From an uncultured Alcaligenaceae bacterium (lineage in GTDB: Bacteria; Pseudomonadota; Gammaproteobacteria; Burkholderiales; Casimicrobiaceae), in NCBI GenBank assembly GCA_964620265.1, contig CAZUGY010000002.1:13504-77503 (forward strand): a stretch of 64,000 nucleotides of DNA, read 5' to 3'. Under the pieces are notes generated by a model. It had not been told where the DNA came from. It was given only the letters and a program-made list of their open reading frames with translations, and made no database searches. Shown piece by piece: positions 3,811 to 56,402 of this stretch; the first letter of the stretch is position 1, and every line of letters begins with the position of its first letter. Made by a program: the position numbers and the translations under genes.

Positions 3811-3811
3811 C

Positions 3812-6351: not shown

Positions 6352-6368
6352 GCCGGACACCTCCCCGC

Positions 6369-6431: not shown

Positions 6432-6479
6432 GGCATCCGTCCCCCAAGTCCCCCACGAACACCCGAGCGCTCCCGCCCG

Positions 6480-33870: not shown

Positions 33871-33885
33871 GCGCGCTCCCGGTCG

Positions 33886-35613
33886 CTACTTCGACAGCAC
33901 CATCGCGAGATAGCCGAACACGGTGAGCAGCACGCCCGATACCGCGTAGCCCACGGGAAAGCCGATCCACGGCACCGAGCTGTCGATCTCCTTGGCCGCC
34001 TCGCGCGCAGGACCCGAGTGCGACCGCGCGCCGGCCACGCCGCCCATCAGCACCGCCGGATTGATCTTCATCCAGTGGTAGCCGATGGCCCACACGAGGA
34101 TCGGCGGGATGGTGGTGACGATGAAGCCCGCGAGGAAGATGTACAGCGCGACCGCGCCCGTGAGCTGCGAGATGAGGCCCGCGCCGGCGTTGATGCCCAC
34201 GATCGCGATGAACACGATGAGCCCCAGGTCCTCCAGGATGTTGCGCGCGGCATTGGGCGTGTTGCCGAAGAAGCGCAGGCGCGACACCACCGAGGACACG
34301 ATCACGCCCGAGACCAGCAGGCCCCCGGCGTTGCCGAGGCCCACGTTGGATCCGGCCAGCGGAAAGGAGATCGCGCCGATGAGGAAGCCCAGGATCATGC
34401 CGAGCGACAGCGTGAGGAGGTCGGTGGCGGTGCTCGGCCGCGCGACCTTGCCGAGGAGGCCGGAGAGCTTGCCGACGGCGGACTTGAGGCCCACCACGAA
34501 CAGCACGTCGAAGCGCTGCAGCTTGACGTGCAGGCCCACCGGGATCGGAACGCCGCCGCGCTCGAGGCGCTGCAGGCCGAGCTGGCCCGCGAATTCGGCG
34601 GTGCGCAGATCGCCCAGCTCCTTGCCTTCCATGTCCTTGTTGGTGACGAGGATCTCGGCCTGGTCGAGCGGGATGTTGAGCGCCTTCGCATCCGGCACCT
34701 CGGGGCCGATGAGCCCCATGCGCTCGGTCATCGAATCGAGGCGCCCGCCGAGCACGATCACGTCGCCCTCGCGCAGCACGAGGTCGTCGGGCGCGCCGAG
34801 CATGTCGGAGCGGTCGCTGTCGGGGAGGTCAGCGCCCGGCCGCCGCACGTTGACGATCTTGTATTCCGGATTGCGCTGCAGGAACTGCAGCACCGTGGAG
34901 CCCACGACCTGCGCATTGGTGAGGCGATAGGCGCGCAACGCGAGCGGCCGGTAGCCCGTGAGGCCGGCATCGTCGACATTGGGCACGCCCTCTTCCTCCT
35001 CGTAGCGCTTGGCGGCCGCCTTGGCATCGATGCCCCACCAGCGCGGCAGGTACTTGCAGATGAGGATGATGCCCACCGTCCCCCAGATGTACGTCAGCCC
35101 GTAGGACAGCGCGATCATGCCGCTCACGGTCTCGAAGGTCTGTCCAGGCCCCAGCGGGAACACGCCCTGCCGCACCGCTTCCTCCGCCGAGCCGATCGCC
35201 GCCGACATCGTCATCGCGCCGGCGAGGATGCCCCCCGCCGCGCCCGCGGGCAGGTCCCACAGCTTGGAGAAGAACACCGCGCCCAGGAGTCCCAGGATCG
35301 AGCAGAACACCGCGAGCACGGTGAACTTCAAGCCGTCGCCCTTCAGGCTGTTGATGAACGACGGCCCCACGCGCAGCCCCACCCCGTACATGAAGAGGTA
35401 GTAGAAGAGCGACTTCGTGAAGTTGTCGAGGCTCATCTTGATGCCGTAGGTGGACGCCCACGCGGAGATGCCCGCCCCCACCACGATGGCGGACGCCACC
35501 ATGCCCAGCCCATAGCCCTTGACCGTGAACTTGCCGAGGAGGACCGCGCCACCCACCGTGAAGAAGAGCAGGATGAAGGGATTCGCCGCCAGCCACTTGA
35601 GGAAGATTTCCAT
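33886..35613 (-). CDS. AspT/YidE-family (AAE) exchanger, second copy
   Basis: YLFMYGVGLRVGPSF, GILAGAMTMSAAIG, TrkA-C loops, GGVAGARSHSG and GFPVGYAVSGVLLT. Confidence 0.9.
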   Translation of the reverse strand: MEIFLKWLAANPFILLFFTVGGAVLLGKFTVKGYGLGMVASAIVVGAGISAWASTYGIKMSLDNFTKSLFYYLFMYGVGLRVGPSFINSLKGDGLKFTVLAVFCSILGLLGAVFFSKLWDLPAGAAGGILAGAMTMSAAIGSAEEAVRQGVFPLGPGQTFETVSGMIALSYGLTYIWGTVGIILICKYLPRWWGIDAKAAAKRYEEEEGVPNVDDAGLTGYRPLALRAYRLTNAQVVGSTVLQFLQRNPEYKIVNVRRPGADLPDSDRSDMLGAPDDLVLREGDVIVLGGRLDSMTERMGLIGPEVPDAKALNIPLDQAEILVTNKDMEGKELGDLRTAEFAGQLGLQRLERGGVPIPVGLHVKLQRFDVLFVVGLKSAVGKLSGLLGKVARPSTATDLLTLSLGMILGFLIGAISFPLAGSNVGLGNAGGLLVSGVIVSSVVSRLRFFGNTPNAARNILEDLGLIVFIAIVGINAGAGLISQLTGAVALYIFLAGFIVTTIPPILVWAIGYHWMKINPAVLMGGVAGARSHSGPAREAAKEIDSSVPWIGFPVGYAVSGVLLTVFGYLAMVLSK

Positions 35614-35633
35614 GACCGTTCCTTTCCGGTTGC

Positions 35634-38432
35634 CTAACGGGAGGTGGCTTTGGTGCGCGGCGCCGGCGCGCGCCCGGCCTTGGCACCATGGGCGGCGAGC
35701 GCCTCGGGCTTCAGGAGCTCGAGTCCGCGCGTGGCATTGAACCCATGGATCTCCTTCACGTCGAGCTTGCGCATGAAGGCGATGGTCTCCGGCGTGACCA
35801 CCTGCCCCGGCACCATGATCGGAAAGCCCGGGGGATAGGGAATCACGAACTTGGCCGACACGAGCTCGGGTCCGTTCTTGAGCCGCTCGTCGATGCGCTT
35901 GTCGTTGAGCTTCAGGTATTCGCAGTTGGCCGCGTCGTAGGCCATGTAGTAGGCCGCGCGCATGTCGCCTTCCGGCGTGGCGCTCTTGCCATCCAGCCGG
36001 AACGCATCGTGGAAGCGGCTGAAGTTGGGAAGGTCGGGCACGTCGTCGACGAGGGACTTCACGCGCTGCGCGAAGGCCTCGCGCTCCGCCTCGCCGCCGT
36101 CGGCGAGCCGCTTGTCGATGGCATGCGACATGTCGACGAGCGCCTTCACGAGATGCGCCATGTCGCTTCGCGTGTTGTTGATGTTGATCTGCACGAGCAC
36201 GCTGTTGCGCGAGGTCTTGTTGATCTGGATGTCGTAGTCGTTGGCGAGCAGCGCCTTGAACTGCGTGCCGTCGTACCCGGCCTTGCCGCAGAGCAGCGTG
36301 ATGCGCGTGGGATCGAGGAAGAACTCGTCCTCGCGCAGCGCCCGCAGCGTGTCGGCCAGCGTGCGGCCGGGCGTGCCGTAGTCGGCGAAGCCGGAACGCC
36401 GGTATTCCGCGGGGATCATCTCCTCCGGAGTCGCGGCACGGAAGTAGCGCGAGATGAGCGGATGCCCGTTGATCTCGCGGCGGATCTCGACGGCGAGCTG
36501 GATCGCCCGCTGCACGAGCTCGTAGCCCTCGAGCTCCATCTGCCGCCGCGCAAGGTCGAGCGAGGCGATGATCTGGAGGTTGGGCGAGGTGGAGGTGTGC
36601 GTGAAGAACGCCTCCTTGAAGGCGGCCTCGACGGACGGGAAGTCCTGGTCCGCCACCACGATGATCGAGCCCTGGCGCAATGCCGACATCGACTTGTGCA
36701 CGGAGTCGGACTCGTATACGCGGATGCGCACCTTGTCAGGGTCCGGCAGGAGCGCCATGTCGAGGAGCTTGGGATCGTTGGGCTTCAGCTTGGCGACCGC
36801 AGCCTTCGACGCCTCGTAGTGCTCGCGATACGCCGGATCGCGCATCAGCGCGCGCAGGCTCGCCGCGGCGCCCATCGCGGTGCGGCGGCGCAGGAACGGC
36901 GAGAAGCGCGCGTAGCCGTACCACGCCTCGTCCCAGAGGAAGACGAGGTCAGGCTTGATGGCGAGGCATTCGAGCATCGTCCGCTCGACGTTGGCGATGT
37001 GGCCGTCGAACGTGCAGTTGGTGAGCACGAGCATGCGCGCGCGGTCGAGCTTGCCCTCGGCCTTCAACTGCAGCAGCGCCTCCTTGATGGGACGGATCGC
37101 GAGGCTGCCATACATCGAGTACTGCGTGAGCGGGAAAGCATCGATGTACAGCGGCTCGCCGCCCGCGAGCACGAGGCCGTAGTGATGCGATTTGTGGCAG
37201 TCGCGGTCGATCAGCACGATGTCGCCGGGCCGCACCAGCGCCTGGTGGATGATCTTGTTGGACGTGGACGTGCCGTTGGTCACGAAGAACGTGCGGTCGC
37301 CGCCGAAGGCGCGCGCCGCCTTGTCCTGCGCGACCTTGATGTTGCCGGTGGGCTCGAGCAGGCTGTCGAGCCCGCCCGTGGTGGCGGAGGACTCGGCGAG
37401 GAAGAGGTTCGCGCCGTAGAACTCGCCCATGTCGCGGATCCAGTTCGACTTGAAGATCGACTTCCCGCGCGCCACCGGCAACGCATGGAAGGTGCCGATC
37501 GGCCGCGCGGCGTAACGCTTCAGGTTGTCGAAATACGGCGTGGCATAGCGGTCGGCCACGCCGGCCTGGATGGCGAGGTGGATCTCCATCGGCTCCTCCA
37601 CGCCGTAGAACACGCGGCGGATGATGTCGGCGTCCTCGGCGCCTGCGAGCTTGCCGACGTCGTGGTCGGTCACCACGAAGAGATCGAGCTCGGGCCGCAG
37701 GTTGTGCAGCAGGCGGCAGAGGGGAACACCCAGGTCGGACAGCCCCACCTGGATCCCGTCGGGCACGTGGGCCGACAGGAGCTCGCGCAAGGCCGGCGTG
37801 CTCAACTGCGACTCGAAGGCGAAGCCCTCGATGGCCACGATGGACTGGAGGTTGAAGTTGAAGAGCGTGGCGAGGACCGCATCCTCGAAGCTGCCGACCA
37901 CCACCGGCTCGTAGGTGAAGGCATCCTCGTCGCGGCGCAGGCGCCGGAAGGTGTCGCGCAGCGACGGCCACGTCGAGCGGTCGCCGGCGGCCACGATCAG
38001 CACCTCGAAGTAGGGACGCCGGCTCTGCCCGCGGCCGAGCGACGGCGGCAGGATGTCCGGCAATTGCGCCTCCGAGTCGTCGTCGGCCGTCCAGGCCTGC
38101 GCGTCGTCGCGGTAGCTGCCCGACATGAGCGCGCCGCTCACCCGGGCGACGAGGCGGGCGAAGCCGCGGGCATCGCCCGACTGGAGCAGATCGTGGATCT
38201 CCGCCATGAGGTGCGGACCCGGATACCCGTTGAGCTCCTCGAGCGAGGTGAGCTCGGCGAGTGCTGCGGCCGCGCGCTTGCGCAGGCCCGCGGCGTCACC
38301 CCCGGCCAGGAGCGCCTTGGCGACCCGGTTGAGATCGCGCCAGCGATCGATGCGCGCCTCGGCGGCGGAGAAGAACTGGCTGAAGGCACCGGCGACCGGT
38401 CCCGCGGCGGACTTGCTTGCGCTCTTGCTCAT
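35634..38432 (-). CDS. Orn/Lys/Arg-type PLP-dependent amino acid decarboxylase (about 932 aa, extended N-terminus)
   Basis: FHALPVARGKS, FVTNGTSTSNK, DRDCHKSHHY, WDEAW, PLP-lysine motif SVHKS, HTSTSPN, LDPTRITL and PYPPGFPIMVPG. Start placed at the ATG after a GGAGGAAG RBS. Confidence 0.9.
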   Translation of the reverse strand: MSKSASKSAAGPVAGAFSQFFSAAEARIDRWRDLNRVAKALLAGGDAAGLRKRAAAALAELTSLEELNGYPGPHLMAEIHDLLQSGDARGFARLVARVSGALMSGSYRDDAQAWTADDDSEAQLPDILPPSLGRGQSRRPYFEVLIVAAGDRSTWPSLRDTFRRLRRDEDAFTYEPVVVGSFEDAVLATLFNFNLQSIVAIEGFAFESQLSTPALRELLSAHVPDGIQVGLSDLGVPLCRLLHNLRPELDLFVVTDHDVGKLAGAEDADIIRRVFYGVEEPMEIHLAIQAGVADRYATPYFDNLKRYAARPIGTFHALPVARGKSIFKSNWIRDMGEFYGANLFLAESSATTGGLDSLLEPTGNIKVAQDKAARAFGGDRTFFVTNGTSTSNKIIHQALVRPGDIVLIDRDCHKSHHYGLVLAGGEPLYIDAFPLTQYSMYGSLAIRPIKEALLQLKAEGKLDRARMLVLTNCTFDGHIANVERTMLECLAIKPDLVFLWDEAWYGYARFSPFLRRRTAMGAAASLRALMRDPAYREHYEASKAAVAKLKPNDPKLLDMALLPDPDKVRIRVYESDSVHKSMSALRQGSIIVVADQDFPSVEAAFKEAFFTHTSTSPNLQIIASLDLARRQMELEGYELVQRAIQLAVEIRREINGHPLISRYFRAATPEEMIPAEYRRSGFADYGTPGRTLADTLRALREDEFFLDPTRITLLCGKAGYDGTQFKALLANDYDIQINKTSRNSVLVQININNTRSDMAHLVKALVDMSHAIDKRLADGGEAEREAFAQRVKSLVDDVPDLPNFSRFHDAFRLDGKSATPEGDMRAAYYMAYDAANCEYLKLNDKRIDERLKNGPELVSAKFVIPYPPGFPIMVPGQVVTPETIAFMRKLDVKEIHGFNATRGLELLKPEALAAHGAKAGRAPAPRTKATSR

Positions 38433-38573
38433 CGACTTCCTCCTTGTGTTGTCACCGCGGCCGCGCGCCGGACGCGTCCGGCGGGGGCTGCCATGCGCTG
38501 CTGGCGAACAGCGGATGGCTGCATCGGGGCGAACCTCGGTGCGCATCATTGCCCGCGCGAGCGGAATGCGTCC

Positions 38574-38641
38574 TTGCAAAACTCGACAAATGGAGACCGC
38601 CGTGGCACATGCCTGCCGTCCTTGCACAATGAGACGCAATG
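38574..38641 (-). promoter_or_regulatory. Two copies of a YGTC-N12-GACG motif with an internal TGCAA, upstream of the decarboxylase operon
   Basis: On the minus strand, CGTCTCATTGTGCAAGGACG starts at 38636 and TGTCGAGTTTTGCAAGGACG starts at 38588, 48 bp apart. Confidence 0.55.
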
Positions 38642-38643
38642 TC

Positions 38644-38657
38644 TTGATGCACGTCAA
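38644..38657. promoter_or_regulatory. FNR/FixK-type box
   Basis: TTGAT-gcac-GTCAA, one mismatch to TTGAT-N4-ATCAA. It sits inside the perfect palindrome GTCTTGA-N6-TCAAGAC (38641-38660). Confidence 0.7.
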
Positions 38658-38750
38658 GACCAAGGGAGGACGTGCCGTCCGCGCGTCGTGCGACGCAGCG
38701 CACGAAGTGGGAGCGCAAGAGCCCGCCGGAGCGAGCGGCCGCGGACGTCG

Positions 38751-39842
38751 CTAGGCCCTCACCTCGACGCTCGAGGTCCGGTGCGCGGCGCGCGCTTCGT
38801 TGCGCCACCGTCCGGGCGTGTTTCCGGACCAGCGCCGGAAGGTCCGCTGGAACGAGCTCAATCCGCTGTAGCCCAGCGTCATCGCGATCTCGTCCATCGG
38901 AATCTCGCCGTCGGCCAGGAGCTGGCGGGCGAAGTCGTAGCGCACGCCATCGAGCACCGCCTGGAAGCTCGTGCCATGCGCCTTCAGGCGCCGGTTGAGC
39001 GTGCGCCGATGCAGGGCCAGCGACTGCGCCACGTCGTCACCCGAGTGGCGGCCGACGATGAGCAGCGTGCGCAACGCGCGCACCACGCGATCGACGAAAG
39101 CGCCGGGACCGAATTCCTGCGCCCGCGCCTCGAGGACGCGTCGCTGCGCGGCATCGGCGCCGGGTACCGGATGCGCGAGCCACTCGCGCGGAAAGCGCAG
39201 GGCGGCGCGATCCGAGTCGAAGCGGAGGCTCCCATGGAAGACCCGCCGGTATTCCGCGATGTGCGCGGGGCGCGCATGGGGAAGCAGCACGGTCTGGATC
39301 GGCCACGCGCCCCCGCACAGCTCCCGCAGGAGGTTGACGGCACCGGCGAGGGCGGAGGCATAGATATGCTCGCTGCCGGCGACCTCGGGTTGATAGATCG
39401 CATAGCCGAAGTCGGCGCTTGCTCCGTGGTCGACCAGGAAGGTCATGGCGCCGCCGCTATTGAGCCGCTGGTAGAGCACGAACATCCGCAGCGCGGCGCC
39501 CACCGTTTCGCAATTGCGGGCGATCTCGCCGGCAAAGCCATAGTCGCGCAGTTGCCATGCCTCGCCGCAGAGGAGCCCGAAGTGCGGGCACTTGGTCTGC
39601 TCCGCCGCCACGCAGAGCAGGCGGCCGAGGCTCGCATAGGGAACCCGCTGGTCGGCCCGATCGAGCGCGTCGGGGGAGAGCCCCGCCATCGCCAGGATGC
39701 GCCCGGGATCGGCGCCCATGCTGGAAAGCAGGCCGGGCACGCTGGTGAACGCGCCCACCCGCTGGTCGGGCCAGGAAGGGGACGCGTCGTCGTGACGCGA
39801 ACCGTGGATACTCGAATTTGCCGCCAAAAGCGCTCCTGTCAT
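38751..39842 (-). CDS. AraC-family transcriptional regulator (same subfamily as 5326-6351)
   Basis: PHFGLLCG, NCETVGAAL, and C-terminal HTHs VAQSLALHRRTLNRRL and IAMTLGYSGLSSFQRTFRRW. Alternative start at 39719. Confidence 0.88.
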   Translation of the reverse strand: MTGALLAANSSIHGSRHDDASPSWPDQRVGAFTSVPGLLSSMGADPGRILAMAGLSPDALDRADQRVPYASLGRLLCVAAEQTKCPHFGLLCGEAWQLRDYGFAGEIARNCETVGAALRMFVLYQRLNSGGAMTFLVDHGASADFGYAIYQPEVAGSEHIYASALAGAVNLLRELCGGAWPIQTVLLPHARPAHIAEYRRVFHGSLRFDSDRAALRFPREWLAHPVPGADAAQRRVLEARAQEFGPGAFVDRVVRALRTLLIVGRHSGDDVAQSLALHRRTLNRRLKAHGTSFQAVLDGVRYDFARQLLADGEIPMDEIAMTLGYSGLSSFQRTFRRWSGNTPGRWRNEARAAHRTSSVEVRA

Positions 39843-39918: not shown

Positions 39919-39938
39919 TGTCCAGATTTGCAAAGACG
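39919..39938 (+). promoter_or_regulatory. Third copy of the YGTC-N12-GACG motif, upstream of the pfl operon
   Basis: TGTCCAGATTTGCAAAGACG, in the divergent intergenic region between AraC and the pfl operon. Confidence 0.55.
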
Positions 39939-40010: not shown

Positions 40011-40418
40011 ATGAACAAGTCTCATATGGCCGTGGCGATTGTCGCCGCCACCGCCCTCATCGGCGTCGCTGCGGCGCAACAGCCCGCGACGTCCACCGAC
40101 AAGGCCACGGCGAAGGCGCAACGCGATGCCGCCGCGCAGAAGAACCTGAAGAGCGCCACCGAGGGTACCGCCAAGGGGTACACCGGCGGCGCCGCCGAGG
40201 GCTCCGCGAAGGCCGCCGCGACCAAGGACATGCCGAGGACGGCACCCGACGCCGCCGCCAAGCAGCAGGCCGTCAAGTCGGCCACCAAGGGTGCGGGCAC
40301 CGGATACGGCGAGGCCGCCGCCGACTCCGCCGCCATCGCCGCCAAGGACAAGTCGGGCAAGACGCCCCTGCCCAAGCCGAAGGCGGATGCACCGGAGATG
40401 CGCAAGGTCGTTCCGTAA
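40011..40418 (+). CDS. Hypothetical secreted Ala/Lys-rich protein with two internal repeats
   Basis: Strong AAGGAGG RBS and signal peptide MNKSHMAVAIVAATALIGVAAA. Repeats KSATEGTAKGY..AAEGSA and KSATKGAGTGY..AAADSA. Ends 18 nt before pflB. Confidence 0.7.
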   Translation: MNKSHMAVAIVAATALIGVAAAQQPATSTDKATAKAQRDAAAQKNLKSATEGTAKGYTGGAAEGSAKAAATKDMPRTAPDAAAKQQAVKSATKGAGTGYGEAAADSAAIAAKDKSGKTPLPKPKADAPEMRKVVP

Positions 40419-40436: not shown

Positions 40437-42689
40437 ATGGCAACTGCGCTGAAGGCTGCCGCGCGCAGCCAGGATCCATGGCGGGATTTCACCCCTGGCG
40501 TGTGGCAGTCGCGCGTCGACGTGCGCGACTTCATCCAGCGCAACTACACGCCGTACGAAGGTGACGGCGCGTTCCTCGCCGGCCCCACCGCCCGCACCAC
40601 GAACCTGTGGAAGTCCCTGGCGCCGCTGCTGGCCGAAGAGCGCAAGAAGGGCATCCTCGACGTCTCGCAGGTGCCCGCGGGCATCCTCGCCCATGGTCCC
40701 GGCTACATCGACCGCGACCACGAGATCATCGTCGGACTGCAGACCGACGCGCCGCTGAAGCGCGCGATCATGCCCAACGGCGGCTGGCGCGTGGTGGCAG
40801 CAAGCCTCGAGGCCTACGGCTACAAGCCCGACGAGCGCGTGGGCGAGATCTTCACCAAGTACCGCAAGACGCACAACGACGGCGTGTTCGATGCCTACAC
40901 GCCCGCGATCCGCAAGGCGCGCAAGTCCGGCGTGGTGACGGGCCTGCCCGATGCCTACGGCCGCGGCCGCATCATCGGCGACTACCGGCGCGTCGCGCTG
41001 TACGGCGTCGATTTCCTCATCGAGGACAAGCAGCGCGAGAAGGCCGAGCTCGACGACCGCCACTCCATCGAGGAGGTGATCCGCGTGCGCGAGGAGCTCG
41101 CCGAGCAGATCCGGTCGCTGCAGGAGCTGAAGGAGATGGCCGCGAGCTATGGCCACGACATCGCAGGTCCCGCGGCCAATGCGCGCGAGGCCGTGCAGTG
41201 GACCTACTTCGGCTACCTCGCCGCGATCAAGCAGCAGAACGGCGCCGCGATGTCCGCCGGGCGGCTGTCCACGTTCTGGGACATCTACTTCGAGCGCGAC
41301 CTGCGCGACGGCACGCTCACCGAGGCGCAGGCGCAGGAGATCATCGACGACGTCGTGATCAAGTGGCGCCTCGTGCGCTTCCTCCGCGCGCCCGAATACA
41401 ACGCGCTCTTCTCCGGCGATCCCGTGTGGGTCACCGAGGTGGTGGGCGGCATGGGCGACGACGGGCGCACGCTGGTGACGAAGAGCGCGTTCCGCATGCT
41501 GCACACGCTGAACAACCTGGGCCCCGCGCCGGAGCCCAACCTGACCGTCTTCTGGTCCACGCGCCTGCCCGAGGGCTTCAAGCGCTTCGCGATCAAGGTG
41601 TCGATCGACACCAGCTCCATCCAGTACGAGGCCGACGACCTCATGCGGCCCAAGTGGGGCGACGACTGTGCCATCGCCTGCTGCGTGTCCGCCATGCGCC
41701 TCGGCAAGCAGATGCAGTTCTTCGGCGCGCGGGTCAACCTGCCCAAGACGCTGCTCTACGCGCTCAACGGCGGCCGCGACGAGATCAGCGGCGAGCAGAT
41801 CGCCCCGCGCCTGGCCCCCGTGACCGGCGACGTCCTCGACTACGACGAGGTGATGGCGCGCCTCGATCCGATGCTCGACTGGCTCGCGCAGACCTACGTG
41901 AATGCGCTGAACGTCATCCACTACATGCACGACAAGTACTGCTACGAGGCGATCGAGATGGCGCTGCACGATCGCGACGTGCTGCGCACGCTGGCCTGCG
42001 GCATCGCCGGCCTCTCGCATGCCGCCGACAGCCTGTCGGCGATCCGGTACGCCAAGGTACGTCCGGTCCGCGACGAGCGCGGGATCATCGTCGACTTCCA
42101 CACCGAGGGCGAGTTCCCCTGCTTCGGCAACAACGACGACCGCGCCGACGACATCGCCAAGGCACTGGTGTCGACGATGATGAACAAGATCCGCCGCTTC
42201 CCGACCTACCGCAACGCCGTGCACACGCAATCGGTGCTCACGATCACGTCCAACGTGGTGTACGGCAAGGCCACCGGCAACACGCCCGACGGCCGCAAGA
42301 AGGGCGAGGCCTTCGCCCCCGGCGCCAATCCCTCCAACGGCCGCGATACGCATGGCGCGCTGGCGGCGCTCATGTCGGTGGCCAAGATCCCCTACGACGA
42401 CGCCGAGGACGGCATCTCGCTCACGCTCTCGGTGGTGCCGTCCGCGCTCGGCAACGCGCAGGAGCGCCTCGACCGCGGCGTGGGCGCGCTCGACGCCTAC
42501 TTCGGCACCGGCGGCTTCCACGTCAACATCAACGTGCTGAACCGCGAGACGCTGCAGGATGCGATGAAGCATCCGGAGAAGTATCCGCAGCTCACGATCC
42601 GGGTGTCGGGCTACGCGGTGAACTTCGTCAAGCTCACGAAGGAGCAGCAGCAGGACGTCATCAACCGCACGTTCCACGGCGCGATCTAG
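40437..42689 (+). CDS. pflB: Pyruvate formate-lyase (formate C-acetyltransferase)
   Basis: 750 aa. [31 protein letters not shown], catalytic IACCVS, and glycyl-radical motif [11 protein letters not shown]. Confidence 0.97.
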
Positions 42690-42696
42690 GACCCCC

Positions 42697-43554
42697 ATGG
42701 CGGACACGCTGGTGGGCAGCCGCTATTCGCTGCATGTCGCAAGGCGTGGCGCAAACGAGACGAAGGCCTCGCGCGACTATTTTGCCGTGCAGCCCGGGGA
42801 CACCGAGCTCGATGCCCCCGGCGAGGACATCGCGGGCTTCGTCCACTCCTACGAGGTGGGCAGCACGGTGGACGGGCCGGGACTGCGCTTCGTGGCCTTC
42901 CTCACCGGCTGCCTGCTGCGCTGCCAGTACTGCCACAACCCGGATACCTGGCACAAGCACAACGGCCACCCCGTGACCGTGTCGCGCGCCATGAAGACGA
43001 TCGGCAAGTACGCCGCGGTGCTCAAGCTCTCCAGGGGCGGCATCACGATCTCCGGCGGCGAGCCCGTGGTGCAGAAGGCCTTCGTCGTGGAGGTGTTCCG
43101 CCGCTGCAAGGCACTCGGCCTGCACACCTGCCTCGACACGTCGGGGCGACTGGGCGAGCGCCTCACCGACGAGGACCTCGCGTCCATCGACCTCAACCTG
43201 CTCGACATCAAGTCGGGCGACCCCGAGATCTACGAGCGCGTGACGCGGCAGCCGCTGCAGCCCACGCTCGACTATGCGCGGCGGCTGTCGGCGCTCGGCC
43301 GTCCCATGTGGATCCGCTACGTGCTCGTGCCGGGCCTCACCGACGGCGTCGACAACGTCGAGAAGGTCGCGCAGTTCTGCGGGAGCCTCGCGACCGTCGA
43401 GCGCGTGGAGATCCTGCGCTTCCACCAGATGGGCCGCGACAAGTGGGAAAAGCTGGGCCTCGAATACACGCTGGGCAACGTCGAGCCGCCCGACGCCGCG
43501 CTGACCGAGCGGGTGCGCGGGCAGTTCCGCAGCCACGGCCTCACCGTCTACTAG
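42697..43554 (+). CDS. pflA: PFL-activating enzyme (radical SAM)
   Basis: GSTVDGPGLRFVAF, CLLRCQYCHNPDTW (CxxxCxxC), GGITISGGEP and WIRYVLVPGLTD. Confidence 0.96.
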   Translation: MADTLVGSRYSLHVARRGANETKASRDYFAVQPGDTELDAPGEDIAGFVHSYEVGSTVDGPGLRFVAFLTGCLLRCQYCHNPDTWHKHNGHPVTVSRAMKTIGKYAAVLKLSRGGITISGGEPVVQKAFVVEVFRRCKALGLHTCLDTSGRLGERLTDEDLASIDLNLLDIKSGDPEIYERVTRQPLQPTLDYARRLSALGRPMWIRYVLVPGLTDGVDNVEKVAQFCGSLATVERVEILRFHQMGRDKWEKLGLEYTLGNVEPPDAALTERVRGQFRSHGLTVY

Positions 43555-43588
43555 ACGACGATCACCAGGCAACTCATCGGGGAAGACC

Positions 43589-45178
43589 TTGGAATTCCTG
43601 CGCACCCTGCTCGAGCAGCAACCGCTGATGGCGGTATTCCTCACCATCGCCATCGGCTATCTCGTGGGCGAGATCAACATCAAGGGCTTCTCGCTCGGGG
43701 TGGGCGCCGTCCTCTTCGTGGCGCTCGCGGTCGGCTGGTTCGCACCCAAGTCGGCGCCCGCGCCGATGGTCGGCACGCTCGGCCTCGCGCTCTTCCTCTA
43801 TGCCGTGGGCGTGCAGTACGGCAAGCAGTTCTTCCTGGGCCTCACCAGCGCGGAGGGACGCAAGGCGAACTTCATCGCCCTCGTGGGCGTGCTGTGCGCG
43901 GGGCTCGTGAGCCTCCTCTTCGTGAAGGTGATGGGGCTGAACCTGGGCCATGCGCTCGGGCTCTTCGCCGGCTCCGGCACGAGCACGCCCACGCTGCAGG
44001 CCGCGATCGTGACGCTGGGCAACGACGATCCCGCCGTCGGCTACTCGGTGTCCTACCCCTTCGGCGTGGCCGGACCGATCCTCCTGCTCTACATCGCCTT
44101 CATGGTCATGAAGCCGCGGCTCGACCGGCCGGGTGCCGGCGGCATGGAGCTGCTCGAGATCGCGCTGCGCAATCCCGAGCACATCGGCCGCACGCTCTCC
44201 GAGGTGAGCGCGGCCCTGCCCGCGGGCGTGAGCATCGCGGCCCTGCGCCGGCAAAGCCAGAACGAGCCGGCCGCCCCCGCCACGGTGCTCGCCGAGGACG
44301 ACGTGCTCCTCGCCGTCGCCTCGACGCAGGTCGCGCTCGAAAGCGCGCGCAAGATGCTGGGCGAAGCGGCGCCGGGCCGCATCGCCAAGGACCGCCGCGA
44401 CCTCGACTATGTCCGCGTGTTCGCCTCCCGGCCCGCCATCGTGGGCCGCGCGCTCGGCGACCTGGCGTTGCCGGGCCGGAAGGCCTCGATCGTGGCGCAC
44501 GTGCGCCGGGGGGACACCGACATCCTGCCGCGACCCGACCTCGTGCTCGAGTTCGGCGATCGCATCGGCCTCCTCGCGCATCGCGACGATTTCGCCGCGC
44601 TGCGCAAGCACTTCGGCGATTCGATCAAGGGCACCGCCGAGTTCAGCTACGTGTCGATCGGGCTCGGCATGGCGGCGGGCTTCCTGCTCGGCGCGATCCA
44701 GCTGCCGCTGCCGGGCATCGGCAAGATCGCCGTGGGCCTGTCGGGCGTGCTCATCATGGCGCTGATCCTCGGCAACTTCCGCCGTACGGGCGGGCTCAAC
44801 TGGACGATTCCCTTGTCGGCCAACCTCGTGCTGCGCAACCTGGGGCTGACGCTGTTCCTGGCCCAGGTCGGCATGGCCTCCGGGCCGAAGTTCGCCGCCA
44901 CCGTCTCGCAGACCGGCTTCATGATGCTGGGCCTGGGCGCGCTCGTGCTGCTCGCCCTCGTGATCCCGATCATGATCCTGGGCTTCCTCGTCTTCCGCAT
45001 GCCCTACGACGAGGTCGCGGGCATCGTCGCGGGCGCGTGCGGCAATCCCGCGATCCTCGCCTACGCCAACAAGCTCGCCCCCACCGATCGCCCGGACCTG
45101 GGCTACGCGATGATCTTTCCCGGCATGACGATCGTGAAGATCATCTTCGTCGACGTGGTTCCCGCATTGGTCACATGA
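43589..45178 (+). CDS. AspT/YidE/YbjL-family (AAE) exchanger, third copy
   Basis: TTG start after a GGGAAG RBS. LFLYAVGVQYG, GLFAGSGTSTPTLQAA, TrkA-C loops, and GACGNPAILAYA...YAMIFP. Confidence 0.88.
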   Translation: MEFLRTLLEQQPLMAVFLTIAIGYLVGEINIKGFSLGVGAVLFVALAVGWFAPKSAPAPMVGTLGLALFLYAVGVQYGKQFFLGLTSAEGRKANFIALVGVLCAGLVSLLFVKVMGLNLGHALGLFAGSGTSTPTLQAAIVTLGNDDPAVGYSVSYPFGVAGPILLLYIAFMVMKPRLDRPGAGGMELLEIALRNPEHIGRTLSEVSAALPAGVSIAALRRQSQNEPAAPATVLAEDDVLLAVASTQVALESARKMLGEAAPGRIAKDRRDLDYVRVFASRPAIVGRALGDLALPGRKASIVAHVRRGDTDILPRPDLVLEFGDRIGLLAHRDDFAALRKHFGDSIKGTAEFSYVSIGLGMAAGFLLGAIQLPLPGIGKIAVGLSGVLIMALILGNFRRTGGLNWTIPLSANLVLRNLGLTLFLAQVGMASGPKFAATVSQTGFMMLGLGALVLLALVIPIMILGFLVFRMPYDEVAGIVAGACGNPAILAYANKLAPTDRPDLGYAMIFPGMTIVKIIFVDVVPALVT

Positions 45179-45933
45179 GCGATCTCGCCACGAGTCCCGC
45201 GTCGGTCTCCGCCACCGGCCGTGGCGCGGCGCAGGCACGGCCCCGTGACGAGGCGGGCGGCGATTCGCGGCGGGCGGCGGAGGTGCTGCGCGCACGCGAG
45301 CTGGCGTGGCGCCTGTCCACGCCGGGCGCCAGCAGCGTCAGGGTCCCGCGCGGGCACGTCCTCGTGCGCAGCGGCGCCCGTTTCGAGGGGCTGTACGTGA
45401 TCCGCTCCGGCTCCTGCATGCTGGTCGTCACGAGTCCCGATGGCGAGGAGCACATCGCCTCGTTCCGCCTTCCCGGCGAGGTCCTGGGCTTCGAGGCGCT
45501 CGCCAGCGGCGTGCACGAAGCCACGGTCCATGCGCTCGAGCCCATGACCTGCTGGCGGCTTCCCGCCGAGCGTGTCGACGCGCTCCTGCGCCAGGACCCG
45601 GCGTTCGCGCAGACGCTGGTCCACGCGCTGTCGCTCGAGGCGGGACGGGGCCTGGCGGGCATGCTCCTGCTCGGAACCATGACGGCCGACCAGCGAGTGG
45701 CGTCGTTCCTGCTCGATCTCGCCGAGCGGTATCGCCAGCTCGGCTTCTCCGACAGCGCCTTCGAGCTCCGGATGACGCGCGCCGAGATCGGCCGCCACCT
45801 GGGCCTCTCCACGGAGACCGTGAGCCGCGTGCTCTCGCGCTTCCGCGCCGACGACCTCGCGATCGTGGACGGACGCAGCGTGCGCCTGCCCGATCGCGCG
45901 GCGCTGGGCCGGATCCTGGTCCACGGCGGCTGA
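45175..45933 (+). CDS. Crp/Fnr-family regulator, FixK-like (no N-terminal Cys cluster)
   Basis: LYVIRSGS, F.LPGEVLGFE, TADQRVASFLLDL, and MTRAEIGRHLGLSTETVSR (FNR-type recognition helix). ATGA overlap with the transporter. Confidence 0.9.
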   Translation: MSDLATSPASVSATGRGAAQARPRDEAGGDSRRAAEVLRARELAWRLSTPGASSVRVPRGHVLVRSGARFEGLYVIRSGSCMLVVTSPDGEEHIASFRLPGEVLGFEALASGVHEATVHALEPMTCWRLPAERVDALLRQDPAFAQTLVHALSLEAGRGLAGMLLLGTMTADQRVASFLLDLAERYRQLGFSDSAFELRMTRAEIGRHLGLSTETVSRVLSRFRADDLAIVDGRSVRLPDRAALGRILVHGG

Positions 45934-46053
45934 ACGGGACGGGGCCGCCGGCGCCGTCGAGCGCGCGGTGGCCACGGGCAGCGGGGGACAATCGCACCGT
46001 GCCGTGACGGCGCGGCGGCCCACGCCGTGCGGGCTGTTGCAGAATGCGGCCCC

Positions 46054-46628
46054 ATGCCGCCCTCCGCCACGCCCTCCGGAACGGGCGCCCATGCCTTCGC
46101 GCACCAGGCGTTCGCGCTGCTCTTCCTCCTCATGGCGATCAATCACCTCGACCGGCATGTCGTGGTGGGCATGTTCGGCCCGCTCGCGGCAGCGTGGAGC
46201 CTCACCGACACGAAGCTCGCCATGCTCGTGTCGATCGTGTCGATCGTGGTCGCGGCGGCCTCGGTGCCGCTTTCCATGCTGGCCGACCGCTGGGGCCGGG
46301 TACGCAGCATCGTGGCGATGGCGCTCGTGTGGAGCCTCGCCACGGATCCGTCGTGATGATGGCGGGCGTGGGCCCGGTCATCGCCGTAGCCCTGGACGTG
46401 GTCCCGCCGCACGTCCGCGCGACCGCCGCCGCCATCGTCGCCATGGCGCAGAACCTGATCGGCCTCGCCGGGGGTGCGTTCATCGCAGGCGCCTTGTCCG
46501 ATCGATACGGCTTGCAGGCCGCACTGGCGATCGTGCCGGCCTTTGCCCTGCCCGCTGCCTTGTGCCATGCGCTGGCGTGCCGCACCTATGTGGCCGACAT
46601 GCATCGCGCAGCACAACGCGAACGCTGA
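46054..46628 (+). pseudogene. Internally deleted, frameshifted paralog of the MFS at 6480-7805 (about TM1-3 joined to TM10-12)
   Basis: 46054-46356 aligns by eye to the N-terminus of the MFS (INHLDRHVV vs VDYVDRQVI; LADRWGRVRSI..WSLAT vs LADRWSRVKSI..WSLAT). 46356-46628 aligns to its C-terminus (VRATAAAI..QNLIGLAGG..LSDRYGLQ). The middle is missing. Confidence 0.8.
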
Positions 46629-46774
46629 AGAGCGAACGCCACGCGCAGTCGCCGCTGCGTTATCCTTGCGGTAGATCATGCCGCCCGGGCTTCCGGGCCA
46701 GTACCCTTGCCGCATCGCCATCCTGGTGCGCTGCGGCTCCTCGAAACAGCGCAGCGCAACCTCAAGTGACTTCC

Positions 46775-48085
46775 ATGCCCCTCGCATCACACTCGCGCTG
46801 GATCGCAGCCTTCGCCTGCGCCACGCTCCTCCCCCCGCTGCACGCCCAGACGCCCACCGCGCCCGCCACCGCGCCGCCCGCGGCCGCCAGCACCCAGGCC
46901 GCCGCCCCGGCGAGTGCCACGTTCTCGCAGGAGGAGCTCGACCAGCTCGTTGCTCCGATCGCGCTCTACCCTGATGCCTTGCTCGCACAGGTGCTGATGG
47001 CCTCCACCTATCCGCTCGAGGTGGTCGAGGCCGAGCGCTGGGTCAAGGCGAACCCGGGACTCAAGGACAAGGCGCTCGAGGATGCGCTGCAACAGCAGAA
47101 GTGGGACCCGAGCGTGAAGTCGCTCGCGGTGTTTCCGCAGGTCCTCACGATGATGAGCGAGAAGCTCGACTGGACGCAGAAGCTCGGCGACGCTTTCCTC
47201 GCGCAGCAGAAGGACGTGCTTGCCACGGCGCAGGCGCTGCGCAGCAAGGCTTCCGCGCAAGGGGCGCTCAAGGACACGAAGGAGCAGAAGGTCATCACCA
47301 CGCAGGAGAACAACACCACGGTGATCAAGATCGAGCCCACGAATCCGGAGGTGGTGTACGTCCCGTCCTACAACCCCACCGTGGTGTACGGCGCATGGCC
47401 CTATCCCGCCTATCCGCCGTACTACTGGTATCCGCCGGGGTACGTGGCCGGAGGCGCGCTCCTGGGCTTCACGGCCGGGGTCATCGTGGGCGGTGCGCTC
47501 TGGGGTGGAGTGGGCTGGGGCCGCGGCGACGTGGACATCAACGTGAATCGCTACAACAACTTCAACAAGACGAACATCAGTAACGGCAACTGGAAGCACA
47601 ACGCCGAGCACCGCGGCGCGGTTCCCTATCGCGACAAGGGCGTTGCACAGCAGAACGGCCGCGGCCAGGCCGCCGACGCCGCGTCGCGCGACGCCTTCCG
47701 CGGTCATGCCGACGCCGGCCGCCAGCAGATCCAGCGCGGCGAGGTAGCGGCTCCGCGCAACACGCAAATGGATAGAGGCGGTGCGGGCGCGGGCGACCGC
47801 GGCGGCGCGGGCGCCGGCAACCGACCGGGCGGAGGCGCAGGTGGCAATTACGGCGGCGCAGGCAATCGCGGAGGCTACAGCGGCGCCAGCGCGGGACAGC
47901 ACGACATGAGCGGCCGCGGCAGCTCGGCATTCGACACGCGCAGCGCGTCGCAGGCACGCAGCTCGAGCAACCGCGGCGCATCGAGCATGAACTCGTCGAT
48001 GGGAGCCGGACACATGTCCCGGGGTGGCGGAGGTGGTGGTGGAGCAAGAGGCGGCGGTGGTGGTGGACGGGGAGGACGGCGATGA
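46775..48085 (+). CDS. DUF3300-family exported protein with a Gly/Arg-rich disordered tail
   Basis: Signal peptide, ELDQLVAPIALYPDALLAQVLMASTYP, WDPSVKSL, IEPTNPEVVYVPSYNP and WKHNAEHRGAVPY. Confidence 0.88.
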   Translation: MPLASHSRWIAAFACATLLPPLHAQTPTAPATAPPAAASTQAAAPASATFSQEELDQLVAPIALYPDALLAQVLMASTYPLEVVEAERWVKANPGLKDKALEDALQQQKWDPSVKSLAVFPQVLTMMSEKLDWTQKLGDAFLAQQKDVLATAQALRSKASAQGALKDTKEQKVITTQENNTTVIKIEPTNPEVVYVPSYNPTVVYGAWPYPAYPPYYWYPPGYVAGGALLGFTAGVIVGGALWGGVGWGRGDVDINVNRYNNFNKTNISNGNWKHNAEHRGAVPYRDKGVAQQNGRGQAADAASRDAFRGHADAGRQQIQRGEVAAPRNTQMDRGGAGAGDRGGAGAGNRPGGGAGGNYGGAGNRGGYSGASAGQHDMSGRGSSAFDTRSASQARSSSNRGASSMNSSMGAGHMSRGGGGGGGARGGGGGGRGGRR

Positions 48086-49056
48086 TCGGCATCTCCATGT
48101 CACCTTTGCTGATGCTTCCCGCGCAATTTTCCGGCCGGTCGATGCAACGCGCCGCACGCGTGGCTACCCTCGCCGTCCTGCTGCTCGCGTCGCCGTACCT
48201 TCTCGCGGCGGAGGCTGCGCAGCGAACCTTTGCGACGCCGGACGATGCCGTGGCGGCGCTTGTCGCAGCCGCCAAAGCTGATGACGCGAAAGCGCTGCGT
48301 GCGGTGCTCGGCAACGACCGTGGCGACCTCGCATCGGGTGACGCCGTGGCCGATCGCACGCTGCGCGAGCAGTTCGTCGCGGCCTACACGGCCAAGCACG
48401 CGCTCGTCCCGGCGGGCGACGCCATGCAGCTCAACGTCGGCAACGACGATTTCCCCTTCGCGTTCCCGTTGGTGAAAAAAGGGGATCGCTGGCGCTTCGA
48501 TACGGCGGCCGGACGCACCGAGCTTCTCGCCCGGCGCATCGGCGCGAACGAGCTCGACGCCATCAAGGTCATGCAGGCCATCGTGGATGCCCAGCGCGAA
48601 TATGCGTCGGTGGACCGCAACGGCGACGGCACCGTCGAGTATGCGCGACGCTTCGCCAGCAGCGCAGGCAAGCACGACGGCCTGTACTGGCCCGCCGCTG
48701 CCGGCGAGGCCCCGAGCCCGCTCGGCAACCTCGTGGCACGCGCCGCCGGCGAGGGCTACCAGGGCAAGGCCGGCACGCCCACGCCCTATCGCGGCTACTA
48801 CTACCGGATGCTCGCAGGCCAGACGGCAAAGGCGAGCGGAGGTGCCACCGACTACGTCGTGCGCCGCCGTGCCATCGGCGGGTTCGCCGTGGTGGCGTAT
48901 CCGGCGAAGTACGCCAGCTCGGGCATCATGACCTTCATCGTGAACCACGACGGCGTCGTCTACCAGGCCGACCTCGGTCCCGATTCCGCCGCCAAGGCGA
49001 AGGCCATGCGCAAGTTCGATCCCGGCAGCGCGTGGACGCGCGTCGCCACGCCCTGA
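48082..49056 (+). CDS. DUF2950-family exported protein
   Basis: FATPDDAVAAL, RRIGANELDAI, GKHDGLYWP, PYRGYYYRML and AYPAKYASSGIMTFIVNHDG. Coupled to DUF3300. Confidence 0.88.
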   Translation: MIGISMSPLLMLPAQFSGRSMQRAARVATLAVLLLASPYLLAAEAAQRTFATPDDAVAALVAAAKADDAKALRAVLGNDRGDLASGDAVADRTLREQFVAAYTAKHALVPAGDAMQLNVGNDDFPFAFPLVKKGDRWRFDTAAGRTELLARRIGANELDAIKVMQAIVDAQREYASVDRNGDGTVEYARRFASSAGKHDGLYWPAAAGEAPSPLGNLVARAAGEGYQGKAGTPTPYRGYYYRMLAGQTAKASGGATDYVVRRRAIGGFAVVAYPAKYASSGIMTFIVNHDGVVYQADLGPDSAAKAKAMRKFDPGSAWTRVATP

Positions 49057-54264: not shown

Positions 54265-55458
54265 TCAGGAAGCGTTCGCGGGCGAGAGCACGTTGCGCGT
54301 GTGGCGCGCGATCATGAGCTCTTCGTTGGTGGGAAGTGCGAGCACCGCCACGCGGCTTTCGGGGGTGCTGATGCGGATGGCGCCGGCGGCATTGGCCGCG
54401 GGGTCGAGCGCCACGCCGAGCCACGCGGCATCGCGGCACACGCGCTCGCGCAGCGATACGCTGTGCTCGCCGATGCCCGCCGTGAACACGATCGCATCGA
54501 GCCCGCCCAGCGCCGCTGCGAGCGAGCCCAGCTCGCGGCCGATGCGGTAGACGAAGAGGTCGATCGCCTCGCGCGCGTGCGGATCGGCGCTCGCCTCGAG
54601 CGTGCGCATGTCGCTCGACACGCCGGACACGCCGAGGAGCCCGGACTGCTGGTAGATGAGCTTCTCGATGGCGCGCGCATCCATGTGCAGCTCGTTCATG
54701 CAGTAGAGCAGCACGCCGGGATCGATGTTGCCGCAGCGCGTGCCCATCGGGAGGCCGTCGACGGCGGTGAAGCCCATCGTGCTCGCCACGCTGCGCCCGG
54801 CGGCGAGCGCGCACATGCTGGCGCCGTTGCCCAGGTGCAGCACGACCGTCCGGCCCGTCGCCGCGCGCGCGTCGTGCCCGGGCAGCGCCTGCGCGATGTA
54901 CTCGTATGAGAGGCCATGGAAGCCGTAGCGCACGACACCACGCTCGCCGAATTCGCGCGGCAGCGCGAAGGCCTGCGCCACCGCGGGCTGGCTGCGGTGA
55001 AAGGCGGTGTCGAAGCACGCCACCTGCGGCAAATCGGGTTGTCGCGCCATCAGCAGGCGGATGGGTGCCAGGTTGTGCGGCTGGTGCAGCGGGGCGAGCG
55101 GCACGAAGCGCTCGAGCGCGGCGAGCACCCCGGCATCCACGCGGATGGGCCGCGCGTAATCCGGGCCGCCGTGCACCACGCGATGCCCCACGGCCGTGAG
55201 CGTGTACGCCGAGAAGCGCGCACGCAACAGCGCGATGAGGTAGTCGAGCGCGCCTTCGTGCCCGAGGCTCGCGCCGTCGCCCCAGGACTTCTCGTCGAAC
55301 ACCTTGCCGCTGCTGTCGCGCGCGACGAAGCGCGGCGAGGTGAACAGGCCCTCGGCCTGGCCGCTGGCGAAGACGGACAGCTCGCCTCCGCGCGGTTCGA
55401 AGAGCGAGAACTTGAGGCTCGACGAGCCCGCGTTGAGGACGGCGATCGCGTCGGGCAT
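54265..55458 (-). CDS. ackA: Acetate/propionate kinase
   Basis: LNAGSSSLKF, GHRVVHGG, FDTAFH, RYGFHGLSY, HLGNGAS, PMGTRCG and PTNEELMIA. Confidence 0.95.
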   Translation of the reverse strand: MPDAIAVLNAGSSSLKFSLFEPRGGELSVFASGQAEGLFTSPRFVARDSSGKVFDEKSWGDGASLGHEGALDYLIALLRARFSAYTLTAVGHRVVHGGPDYARPIRVDAGVLAALERFVPLAPLHQPHNLAPIRLLMARQPDLPQVACFDTAFHRSQPAVAQAFALPREFGERGVVRYGFHGLSYEYIAQALPGHDARAATGRTVVLHLGNGASMCALAAGRSVASTMGFTAVDGLPMGTRCGNIDPGVLLYCMNELHMDARAIEKLIYQQSGLLGVSGVSSDMRTLEASADPHAREAIDLFVYRIGRELGSLAAALGGLDAIVFTAGIGEHSVSLRERVCRDAAWLGVALDPAANAAGAIRISTPESRVAVLALPTNEELMIARHTRNVLSPANAS

Positions 55459-55460
55459 CG

Positions 55461-56402
55461 TCAGGCGAGCGCCTTGCCGGGCGCTTCGCGCCGCGCGCTG
55501 GCAACGAGCGACGCGATGCCGCACGAGGCAAGGCGGGTGGTGTTGGAGTCGGCGCGGCTGGTGAGGATGATCGGCACGCGCGCGCCGAGCACGATGCCGG
55601 CGGCGTCGGCGCCGGCGAGGAACGACAGGCTCTTGGCGAGCATGTTGCCCGCCTCGAGATCCGGCACGACAAGCACGTTGGCCCGTCCGGCCACCGGCGA
55701 ATCGATCTTCTTGATCTTCACCGACTCGAGGCTGATCGCGTTGTCGAGCGCGAGCGGACCGTCGAGGATGGCGCCCGTGATCTGCCCGCGATCGGCCATC
55801 TTGCACAGCGCGCCCGCCTCGACCGTGGACGGGACCTTGGGATTCACCGTCTCCATCGCGGAGAGGATGGCGACACGCACTTCGGGAAAGCGCATGGCGT
55901 GCCCGAGGTCGATGGCGTTCTGGATGATGTGGACCTTGTCCTCCATCGTGGGGGCGATGTTGATCGCCGCGTCGGTGACGATGAGGGTCTCGCTGTACGA
56001 GGGCACGTCCATGACGAAGCAGTGGCTGACCCGGCGCGAGGTGCGCAAGCCCGTCTCGCGCCGCACCACCGCACCCATGAGCTCGTCGGTATGCAGGCTC
56101 CCCTTCATGAGCGCCTCCGCCTTGCCCTCGCGCACGAGGGCCACCGCCCTGGCGGCGGAGGCCTCGGTATCCGCGGCATCGACGAGCGGCAGCGCGGCGA
56201 TGTCGATCCCGTGCTTGCGTGCGACCTCCTCGATGAGCGCCTTGGGACCCACGAGGATCGGGGCGATGAGCCCGAGCGCCGCGGCGTCCACCACTCCCCG
56301 CAGCGAGCTCTCGTCGCATGGGTACGCCACCGCGGTGGGCACCGGTGGCAGCGTCTTGCAGAAATCGAGGAGACGCTGGTATTTCTCGCGCGTTCGTTCC
56401 AT
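55461..56402 (-). CDS. pta: Phosphate acetyl/butyryltransferase (no MaoC domain)
   Basis: LMKGSLHT, DAAINIAP, DGPLALDNA, VPDLEAGNMLAK and GARVPIILTSRAD. Directly upstream of ackA. Confidence 0.88.
   Translation of the reverse strand: MERTREKYQRLLDFCKTLPPVPTAVAYPCDESSLRGVVDAAALGLIAPILVGPKALIEEVARKHGIDIAALPLVDAADTEASAARAVALVREGKAEALMKGSLHTDELMGAVVRRETGLRTSRRVSHCFVMDVPSYSETLIVTDAAINIAPTMEDKVHIIQNAIDLGHAMRFPEVRVAILSAMETVNPKVPSTVEAGALCKMADRGQITGAILDGPLALDNAISLESVKIKKIDSPVAGRANVLVVPDLEAGNMLAKSLSFLAGADAAGIVLGARVPIILTSRADSNTTRLASCGIASLVASARREAPGKALA

Follow-up and report, generated by a model that had tools for sequence, protein, structure and literature searches.

To our knowledge, the export of formate is understood almost only through FocA, a pentameric channel whose gene, in Escherichia coli, lies next to and before that of pyruvate formate-lyase (PFL; pflB) on the same strand and is transcribed with it; in focA mutants of this species the excretion of formate continues. 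We describe here a stretch of 64,000 nucleotides (henceforth the window) from an uncultured Alcaligenaceae bacterium, a soil betaproteobacterium of the order Burkholderiales (assembly GCA_964620265.1, contig CAZUGY010000002.1, positions 13,504 to 77,503), in which pflB and pflA, the gene for the PFL-activating enzyme, are followed by a gene for a membrane transporter of the AAE family (TC 2.A.81). The three genes recur together in at least five phyla, and we propose, with a probability that we put at roughly 35%, that the pfl-linked clade of AAE transporters constitutes a FocA-independent, carrier-type formate exporter, which travels with pflBA and replaces FocA in most of its carriers.

Members of the AAE family carry small carboxylates: aspartate/alanine, succinate and glutamate (PMC12462496; PMC9527358). 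The founder of the family, AspT of Tetragenococcus halophilus, partners an aspartate decarboxylase, whereas the transporter described here partners PFL. The orphan YidE of E. coli is similar to it in length and domain order and is encoded next to ibpAB, not next to pfl. The best functional analogy is offered by SucE1 of Corynebacterium glutamicum, an AAE member that exports a fermentation carboxylate (PMC9527358; PMC12297413); it differs, by its description, in substrate and gene context. With FocA the transporter would share its proposed job, the movement of formate across the inner membrane, as well as its probable co-transcription with PFL. The two folds are unrelated, FocA being a channel and the transporter a predicted elevator-type carrier with TrkA_C domains, and the transporter gene follows pflA, whereas focA precedes pflB.

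The pflB-pflA-transporter cassette

The window has a G+C content of about 69% and its reading frames were chosen by third-position G+C, which reaches 0.93 in the frame of the transporter gene. Five genes stand head to tail on the forward strand: the gene for a small protein of 135 amino acids, pflB (40437..42689), pflA (42697..43554), the transporter gene (43589..45178; 529 amino acids, TTG start) and a gene of the Crp/Fnr family (45175..45933). A preliminary description of this DNA had placed the last four in one run, and all four were found in that arrangement with the same boundaries. The gap between pflB and pflA measures 7 bases and that between pflA and the transporter gene 34 bases, and the transporter and Crp/Fnr genes overlap by 4 bases (ATGA); judging from this spacing, the run is therefore likely to be transcribed as a single unit. 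The product of pflB passes the pyruvate formate-lyase (formate C-acetyltransferase) equivalog TIGR01255 (1153 bits, cut-off 994), fails the models for other glycyl-radical enzymes and contains PFL-like and Gly_radical domains, the glycyl-radical motif RVSGY with Gly725 and the Cys415-Cys416 pair. The radical-SAM enzyme PflA scores 303 bits against TIGR02493 (cut-off 232) and has its CxxxCxxC motif at residue 72.

In a scan with one genome per species, a transporter of 70-85% identity was encountered at 80 loci, of which 77 were informative (3 were too short). The pflB-pflA pair stood beside the transporter gene in 56 of these 77: directly 5' of it and on the same strand in 54, with pflA and the transporter gene mostly some 15-50 bases apart, and as a convergent pflB-pflA-ackA group in two loci of the Gemmataceae. 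The hosts of the loci belong to the Pseudomonadota (Beta-, Gamma- and Alphaproteobacteria), Verrucomicrobiota, Acidobacteriota, Planctomycetota and Myxococcota. Since an even sample of 301 genomes from the order contained just 21 with PFL, the association across phyla is strong and non-random, and chance adjacency can be ruled out. The same three genes were found together in all three long metagenome contigs with unrelated flanks (3/3), and relatives of the transporter in metagenomes number in the thousands, the best of them at about 80-89% identity.

Linkage to the transporter is seen for two lineages of PflB, which show about 85% and about 65-70% identity with the PflB of the window. In the transporter tree, pfl-linked sequences occur in all parts, and those without the linkage are confined to a few derived subclades. 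The tree crosses phyla and departs from the species tree: planctomycete and alphaproteobacterial sequences nest among the betaproteobacterial ones, which indicates that pflB-pflA-transporter is a self-contained cassette that has spread horizontally. A literature search, partial in its coverage, found no paper that links an AAE, YidE, YbjL or AspT transporter to PFL or formate, and what we describe is apparently a conserved but undescribed variant of the AAE family in a new functional context.

Variations on the cassette were also recorded. The locus of Ramlibacter sp. PS3R-8 (L068, 39-8581) holds three AAE copies round one pflBA, two of them in tandem 5' of pflB and the third in the customary place after pflA. 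In genome G008, which belongs to the same genus as the window (loci L012/L022, 8033-10498, reverse strand), pflA and the transporter gene form a single open frame of 821 amino acids; the pflB of the same assembly is split, and an indel error is a likelier explanation than a genuine fusion.

Family, fold and binding pocket of the transporter

The AAE membership of the transporter rests on PF06826 and PF02080 (TrkA_C), each found in two stretches (E 2e-65 for PF06826), and on the duplication domain TIGR01625 (198 bits, cut-off 72); the domain search did not find the FNT domain PF01226 (Form_Nir_trans) in it. The membrane part consists of two inverted repeats that contain hairpins, and a pair of TrkA_C domains lies at the centre. 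The best-scoring NCBIfam model is that of YidE (NF003007/PRK03818), yet the score stays below the cut-off (276.5 vs 449 bits), and the protein falls further short of the AspT equivalog TIGR03802 (200.8 vs 546.95 bits) and of the YbjL model NF003440/PRK04972 (75.7 vs 645 bits). Its sequence identity amounts to 29% with E. coli YidE, 23% with YbjL, 27% with the AspT that is encoded in the window itself and about 21% with AspT of T. halophilus. On these sequence comparisons the transporter belongs to a distinct YidE-like clade of the family.

The AlphaFold model of the transporter (pLDDT 80.7, pTM 0.66) was compared with known structures by Foldseek. The top five matches in the PDB were all AspT and covered the full length (E 2e-19 to 1e-17, TM 0.55-0.61); those with 8Y1X, 8XW5 and 9OQY, the structures of the family founder, reached E 2e-19 and TM 0.57-0.61. 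They were followed only by TrkA/RCK domains and CitS. The transporter is thus predicted to have the AspT-type elevator fold with two helical hairpins, and it shares with AspT the two inverted repeats, the pair of hairpins and a soluble domain at the centre. The earlier label of an AspT/YidE-type transporter held as far as the AAE domains and the AspT fold are concerned; it did not hold at the level of the AspT, YidE and YbjL equivalogs, all of whose cut-offs the protein misses.

In AspT the aspartate sits between the hairpins, where it is surrounded by Thr130, Ser132, Tyr167, Leu431, Thr496 and Ser498 (PMC12462496). The first hairpin (HP1) of the transporter reads GSGTSTP and has kept its hydroxyls: in the alignment, which places all of these residues but Tyr167, Thr130 of AspT corresponds to Thr131 and Ser132 to Thr133, and this HP1 threonine and the Leu/Phe of TM8 (Leu431 and Phe434 of AspT) are retained. 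The second hairpin (HP2) reads GACGNPA; here Thr496 of AspT is replaced by Gly485 and Ser498 by Pro487, so that the aspartate-binding set as a whole is not kept, a point in support of the earlier reading. Cys484-Gly485-Asn486 is kept in 18 of 18 aligned clade members, unlike in YidE, YbjL and AspT. YidE shares the T-x-T-P motif of HP1, but has GSMTDPP in HP2, and the loop after HP1 is shorter in the transporter. As read from these alignments the binding pocket is specific to the clade, and the cargo is not readable from sequence alone.

These comparisons bear on two possible cargoes. An ordinary aspartate:alanine or other amino-acid exchanger, standing beside pflA by accident, would accord with the family name and with two further AAE genes 8-11 kb upstream in the window, one of which (32176-33870) does pass the AspT equivalog (553.2 bits, cut-off 546.95). 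The transporter itself misses that equivalog by a wide margin, has lost the AspT binding residues of HP2, differs strongly from the AspT of the window and keeps its adjacency to pflA across phyla; we consider an amino-acid exchanger very improbable and have rejected the Asp/Ala role on the TIGR03802 score, the lost residues and the cross-phylum linkage. A SucE1-like exporter of dicarboxylates such as succinate, co-expressed with PFL through a shared anaerobic mixed-acid metabolism, also seems improbable. Succinate export is a demonstrated AAE function (cited in PMC9527358 and PMC12462496), and YidE has been termed a SucE homolog (PMC12297413), but the low identity to YidE and the different HP2 motif speak against a transfer of this function. 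Moreover, neither fumarate reductase, PEP carboxylase nor any other gene of a succinate branch is found among the recurrent neighbours of the cassette; an operon of the beta-oxidation type in Paraburkholderia, described below, could conceivably serve a dicarboxylate.

Formate and the other candidate cargoes

The transporter probably carries some carboxylate of the PFL branch. Formate specifically is the top-ranked candidate, with a little less than an even chance, and acetate or short-chain acids come next. Formate is ranked first because the contact with pflA is invariant, FocA-type channels are scarce in the genomes with the cassette and the organism has a formate dehydrogenase of the periplasmic type. 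In the scheme that we infer, which extends from co-transcription to the direction, substrate and driving force of transport, PflA would place the glycyl radical on PflB under anoxia, PflB would convert pyruvate to acetyl-CoA and formate, Pta and AckA would turn acetyl-CoA into acetate and ATP, and the co-transcribed carrier would expel the anionic end product from the cytoplasm. By analogy with AspT, it would operate as a homodimeric elevator whose two hairpins form one small binding pocket and whose two cytoplasmic TrkA_C domains may gate it. With formate as cargo, the transporter would do the export job of FocA in a FocA-less genome and would feed a periplasmic selenocysteine formate dehydrogenase.

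The preliminary description had remarked that the window contains neither a FocA/FNT channel nor a formate dehydrogenase, which was borne out. It had also suggested a search for FNT genes in the rest of the genome and had taken a FocA found there as an argument against its proposal; the search returned none in the assembly, which is 99.72% complete. Formate dehydrogenases do occur on other contigs. The gene at C4:15695-18745 encodes an alpha subunit that scores 1454 bits against TIGR01553 (above the cut-off) and is interrupted by one in-frame TGA; it presumably specifies a selenocysteine enzyme of the periplasmic FdnG/FdoG type. Two FdsA/FdhF-like genes, on other contigs as well, stay below the TIGR01591 cut-off. 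The organism could thus make use of exported formate, and a periplasmic-type enzyme acting on endogenous formate would need formate export. None of the 80 loci had a formate dehydrogenase adjoining the cassette.

FNT proteins were classified by their similarity to E. coli FocA as against NirC. Among 50 genomes with the cassette, 31 have no FNT of any kind and the other 19 have FocA-like (7), NirC-like (2) or distant (10, of which 7 in Variovorax) proteins; FocA-like genes are thus largely absent where the cassette is present. Of the PFL-positive genomes of the order sample that lack the cassette, 13 of 19 have an FNT closer to FocA than to NirC. The contrast between 7/50 and 13/19 (Fisher p = 2.5e-5, uncorrected for kinship) is suggestive only, as the two sets were drawn differently and are confounded by phylogeny, which lessens its weight in favour of the replacement of FocA. 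The OprD-type porin that adjoins the transporter in several loci (6 in the neighbour count) is a further point in support of the proposed exporter.

Several observations weigh against a strictly formate-specific role or against a simple replacement of FocA. First, 17 of the 21 genomes with an unlinked ortholog (72-77% identical) have no PFL anywhere, and the orthogroup therefore works without formate made by PFL. In PFL-less Paraburkholderia (L073, L076, L088-L090 and L093; ~1000-8600) the ortholog, 72-74% identical, ends a LysR-controlled operon in which it is preceded by a fadB-like gene and two acyl-CoA dehydrogenase genes; in PFL-less Caballeronia it stands tail to tail with ackA-pta, and in Verrucomicrobiaceae an unlinked ortholog follows an OprD porin gene. 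Second, FocA and the transporter occur together in two clusters. In genome G247 (L011, 5737-11452, reverse strand) the order is pflB-pflA-AAE-FocA, the AAE protein being 51% identical, together with a divergent D-2-hydroxyacid dehydrogenase, DUF3141 and MaoC-PTA; other genomes of its genus have PFL and FocA and no close AAE match. In L077 the order is FocA-ackA-pflB-pflA-AAE. FocA and the transporter are thus no simple substitutes for each other. Third, 7 of the 21 PFL-positive genomes of the order sample have no FNT channel, and five such genomes have no close ortholog of the transporter either. In four of these five, no transporter was found among the pflBA neighbours examined, and in the fifth (G305) the annotation covered only the upstream gene; a pfl locus can thus do without a dedicated channel at its side. 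Finally, both ackA and pta often lie nearby, and in Caballeronia they do so where pfl is absent, which fits acetate equally well. The substrate of the Paraburkholderia operon could point to the cargo of the transporter.

The earlier idea that the transporter stands in the place of the formate channel accordingly survives in part. Its conserved pflBA partner, a focA-like position and the rarity of FocA-like channels in its hosts speak for it, whereas the orthologs in PFL-less genomes and the two clusters that also contain FocA speak against it.

Acetate, or short-chain monocarboxylates in general, would be carried if the transporter served the Pta-AckA branch that PFL feeds. An ackA gene lies within 7 kb of the transporter gene in 28 of the 80 loci by tblastn (19 loci by clustering) and pta in 22, the PFL-less contexts of Caballeronia and Paraburkholderia (ackA-pta and the operon with fadB-like and acyl-CoA dehydrogenase genes) would be accounted for, and the coexistence of FocA and transporter is what one would expect of two proteins with different cargoes. 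We nevertheless regard this as rather unlikely. It is pflA with which the tight and invariant contact exists, while ackA and pta vary in position and strand, and a role in acetate transport alone would not predict the complementary pattern with FocA-like channels. Acetic acid (pKa 4.76) moreover crosses membranes more readily than formic acid (pKa 3.75).

The preliminary description had tentatively assigned the transporter an electrogenic role analogous to that of OxlT, a carrier of the MFS superfamily which likewise releases formate that stems from C-C cleavage in the cytoplasm. Apart from belonging to another superfamily, OxlT gains its energy from a 2-/1- exchange combined with a proton-consuming decarboxylation, and neither applies to PFL. 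The PFL reaction consumes no proton and an exchange of pyruvate(1-) for formate(1-) is electroneutral, because of which the electrogenic scheme is unsupported; a carrier that lets out the anion, or the acid together with a proton, is the more plausible scheme. The same argument deprives of an OxlT-like energy gain a transporter that would import pyruvate, or exchange external pyruvate for internal formate or acetate, and so feed PFL during anaerobic survival. Such an activity, in its exchange form the second option of the preliminary description, would resemble the precursor/product exchange of the founding member AspT (PMC12462496), and it would suit a module that turns pyruvate into acetate, formate and ATP without a redox partner. 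Serine dehydratase, a source of pyruvate, is a neighbour in 7 loci, but pyruvate supplied inside the cell by an adjacent gene product speaks against any need to import it, and PFL-less genomes retain the ortholog; an import or exchange of pyruvate is in our estimation a long shot.

Regulation, neighbouring genes and significance

The first gene of the operon (40011..40418, forward strand), directly 5' of pflB, encodes an Ala/Lys-rich protein of 135 amino acids with a signal-peptide-like N-terminus. It starts with ATG after a GGAGGA ribosome-binding site, has the third-position G+C signal in its frame and has no match in Pfam or NCBIfam; a 57%-identical copy precedes pflB in two other loci (L019 and L020). 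The last gene, for the Crp/Fnr-family protein of 252 amino acids (cNMP_binding and HTH_Crp_2 domains), has its ATG overlapping the TGA of the transporter gene and is translationally coupled to it here, and among the 80 loci scanned a homolog occurs near the cassette in only one other; the gene is a local addition and not a conserved part of the cassette. An oxygen-sensing FNR identity was ruled out for its product, which scores 138.7 bits against the FNR model NF008365 (cut-off 228) and has only Cys81 and Cys126, and not the N-terminal cysteine cluster for a [4Fe-4S] centre.

Neither was an FNR box (TTGAT-N4-ATCAA with at most 2 mismatches) found in the 400 bases 5' of pflB in the window, nor any conserved site of this kind in some 50 loci. 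A blind search of 54 upstream regions for shared inverted repeats and 8-mers recovered nothing universal except the ribosome-binding site. The lack of a regulatory site common to the hosts suggests that the cassette is wired differently from host to host.

For the window itself a candidate site can be named. An AraC-family gene (38751..39842, reverse strand; Arabinose_bd and HTH_18 domains; its start at 39842 was read from the sequence and is in frame with the stop) is oriented divergently from the pfl operon, and pflB is likewise preceded by an AraC gene in the metagenome contig L009. A putative operator of 20 bases, TGTCCAGATTTGCAAAGACG, occupies 39919..39938 on the forward strand, 73 bases 5' of the first gene of the operon, and a near-copy is found at 38569-38588 on the reverse strand, 5' of a decarboxylase operon. 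The tight pattern of the pair, TGTCnAGnTTTGCAAnGACG, has only these two matches in the 64 kb, which flank the AraC gene and are each oriented with their own operon; a copy with 3 mismatches lies about 115 bases 5' of pflB in the same-genus locus L022. Only this 20-base version is specific, since the looser form YGTC-N12-GACG shows no enrichment in the window (30 matches vs 17.5 ± 5.7 expected). We infer that the 20-base site may act as an operator, and its arrangement suggests that the two AAE-containing operons, that of the decarboxylase and that of pfl, are co-regulated.

The decarboxylase operon (32176-38663, reverse strand) is an apparent operon in which a gene for a long Orn/Lys/Arg-type decarboxylase, with its OKR_DC_1 domain from about residue 375, is followed by the two AAE genes mentioned above. 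The usual partner of such a decarboxylase is an amine antiporter of the APC type.

On the 3' side of the pfl run, genes for DUF3300, DUF2950, GNAT, DUF2254 and PPK2 (52637-53407, forward strand) are followed on the reverse strand by a fabI-like gene, ackA, pta and DUF3141. The acetate kinase gene ackA (54295..55458, reverse strand) was identified by tblastn through its 75% identity to the AckA of G008, which has the Acetate_kinase domain, and the phosphotransacetylase gene pta (55467..56402, reverse strand) through 85% identity to the L021 gene of a neighbour cluster of 313 amino acids; this L021 gene is the one called PTA_PTB in L009, which is the same contig. The enzymes that convert acetyl-CoA to acetate and ATP thus share the neighbourhood of the pfl run, 9-11 kb downstream of it. 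Besides ackA, pta, serine dehydratase and the OprD porin, the recurrent neighbours of the cassette are PPK2 (20 loci), SulP-STAS (15), GNAT (15) and DUF2950/DUF3300 (11). PPK2 and SulP-STAS being so frequent, the cassette may belong to a larger anoxic energy island. The DUF3300-DUF2950 pair of the window (45968-49056, forward strand), two predicted exported proteins, recurs beside the pfl cassette in L019, L020, L024, L025, L042, L049, L067 and L082.

The mobile pflB-pflA-transporter cassette is a concrete candidate for the missing FocA-independent export route of formate or of another small acid. Through it the orphan YidE-like branch acquires its first physiological context, and this in a family that had no solved structure before 2025. 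The cassette, along with ackA-pta and PPK2, illustrates how soil lineages that are largely aerobic (Variovorax, Paraburkholderia, Cupriavidus, Acidobacteriota and Verrucomicrobiota) may gain a module for anoxic survival by gene transfer. Formate as cargo, if true, would extend the AAE family to a new class of substrate, and if the cargo were acetate or another acid, the family would still gain a new substrate.

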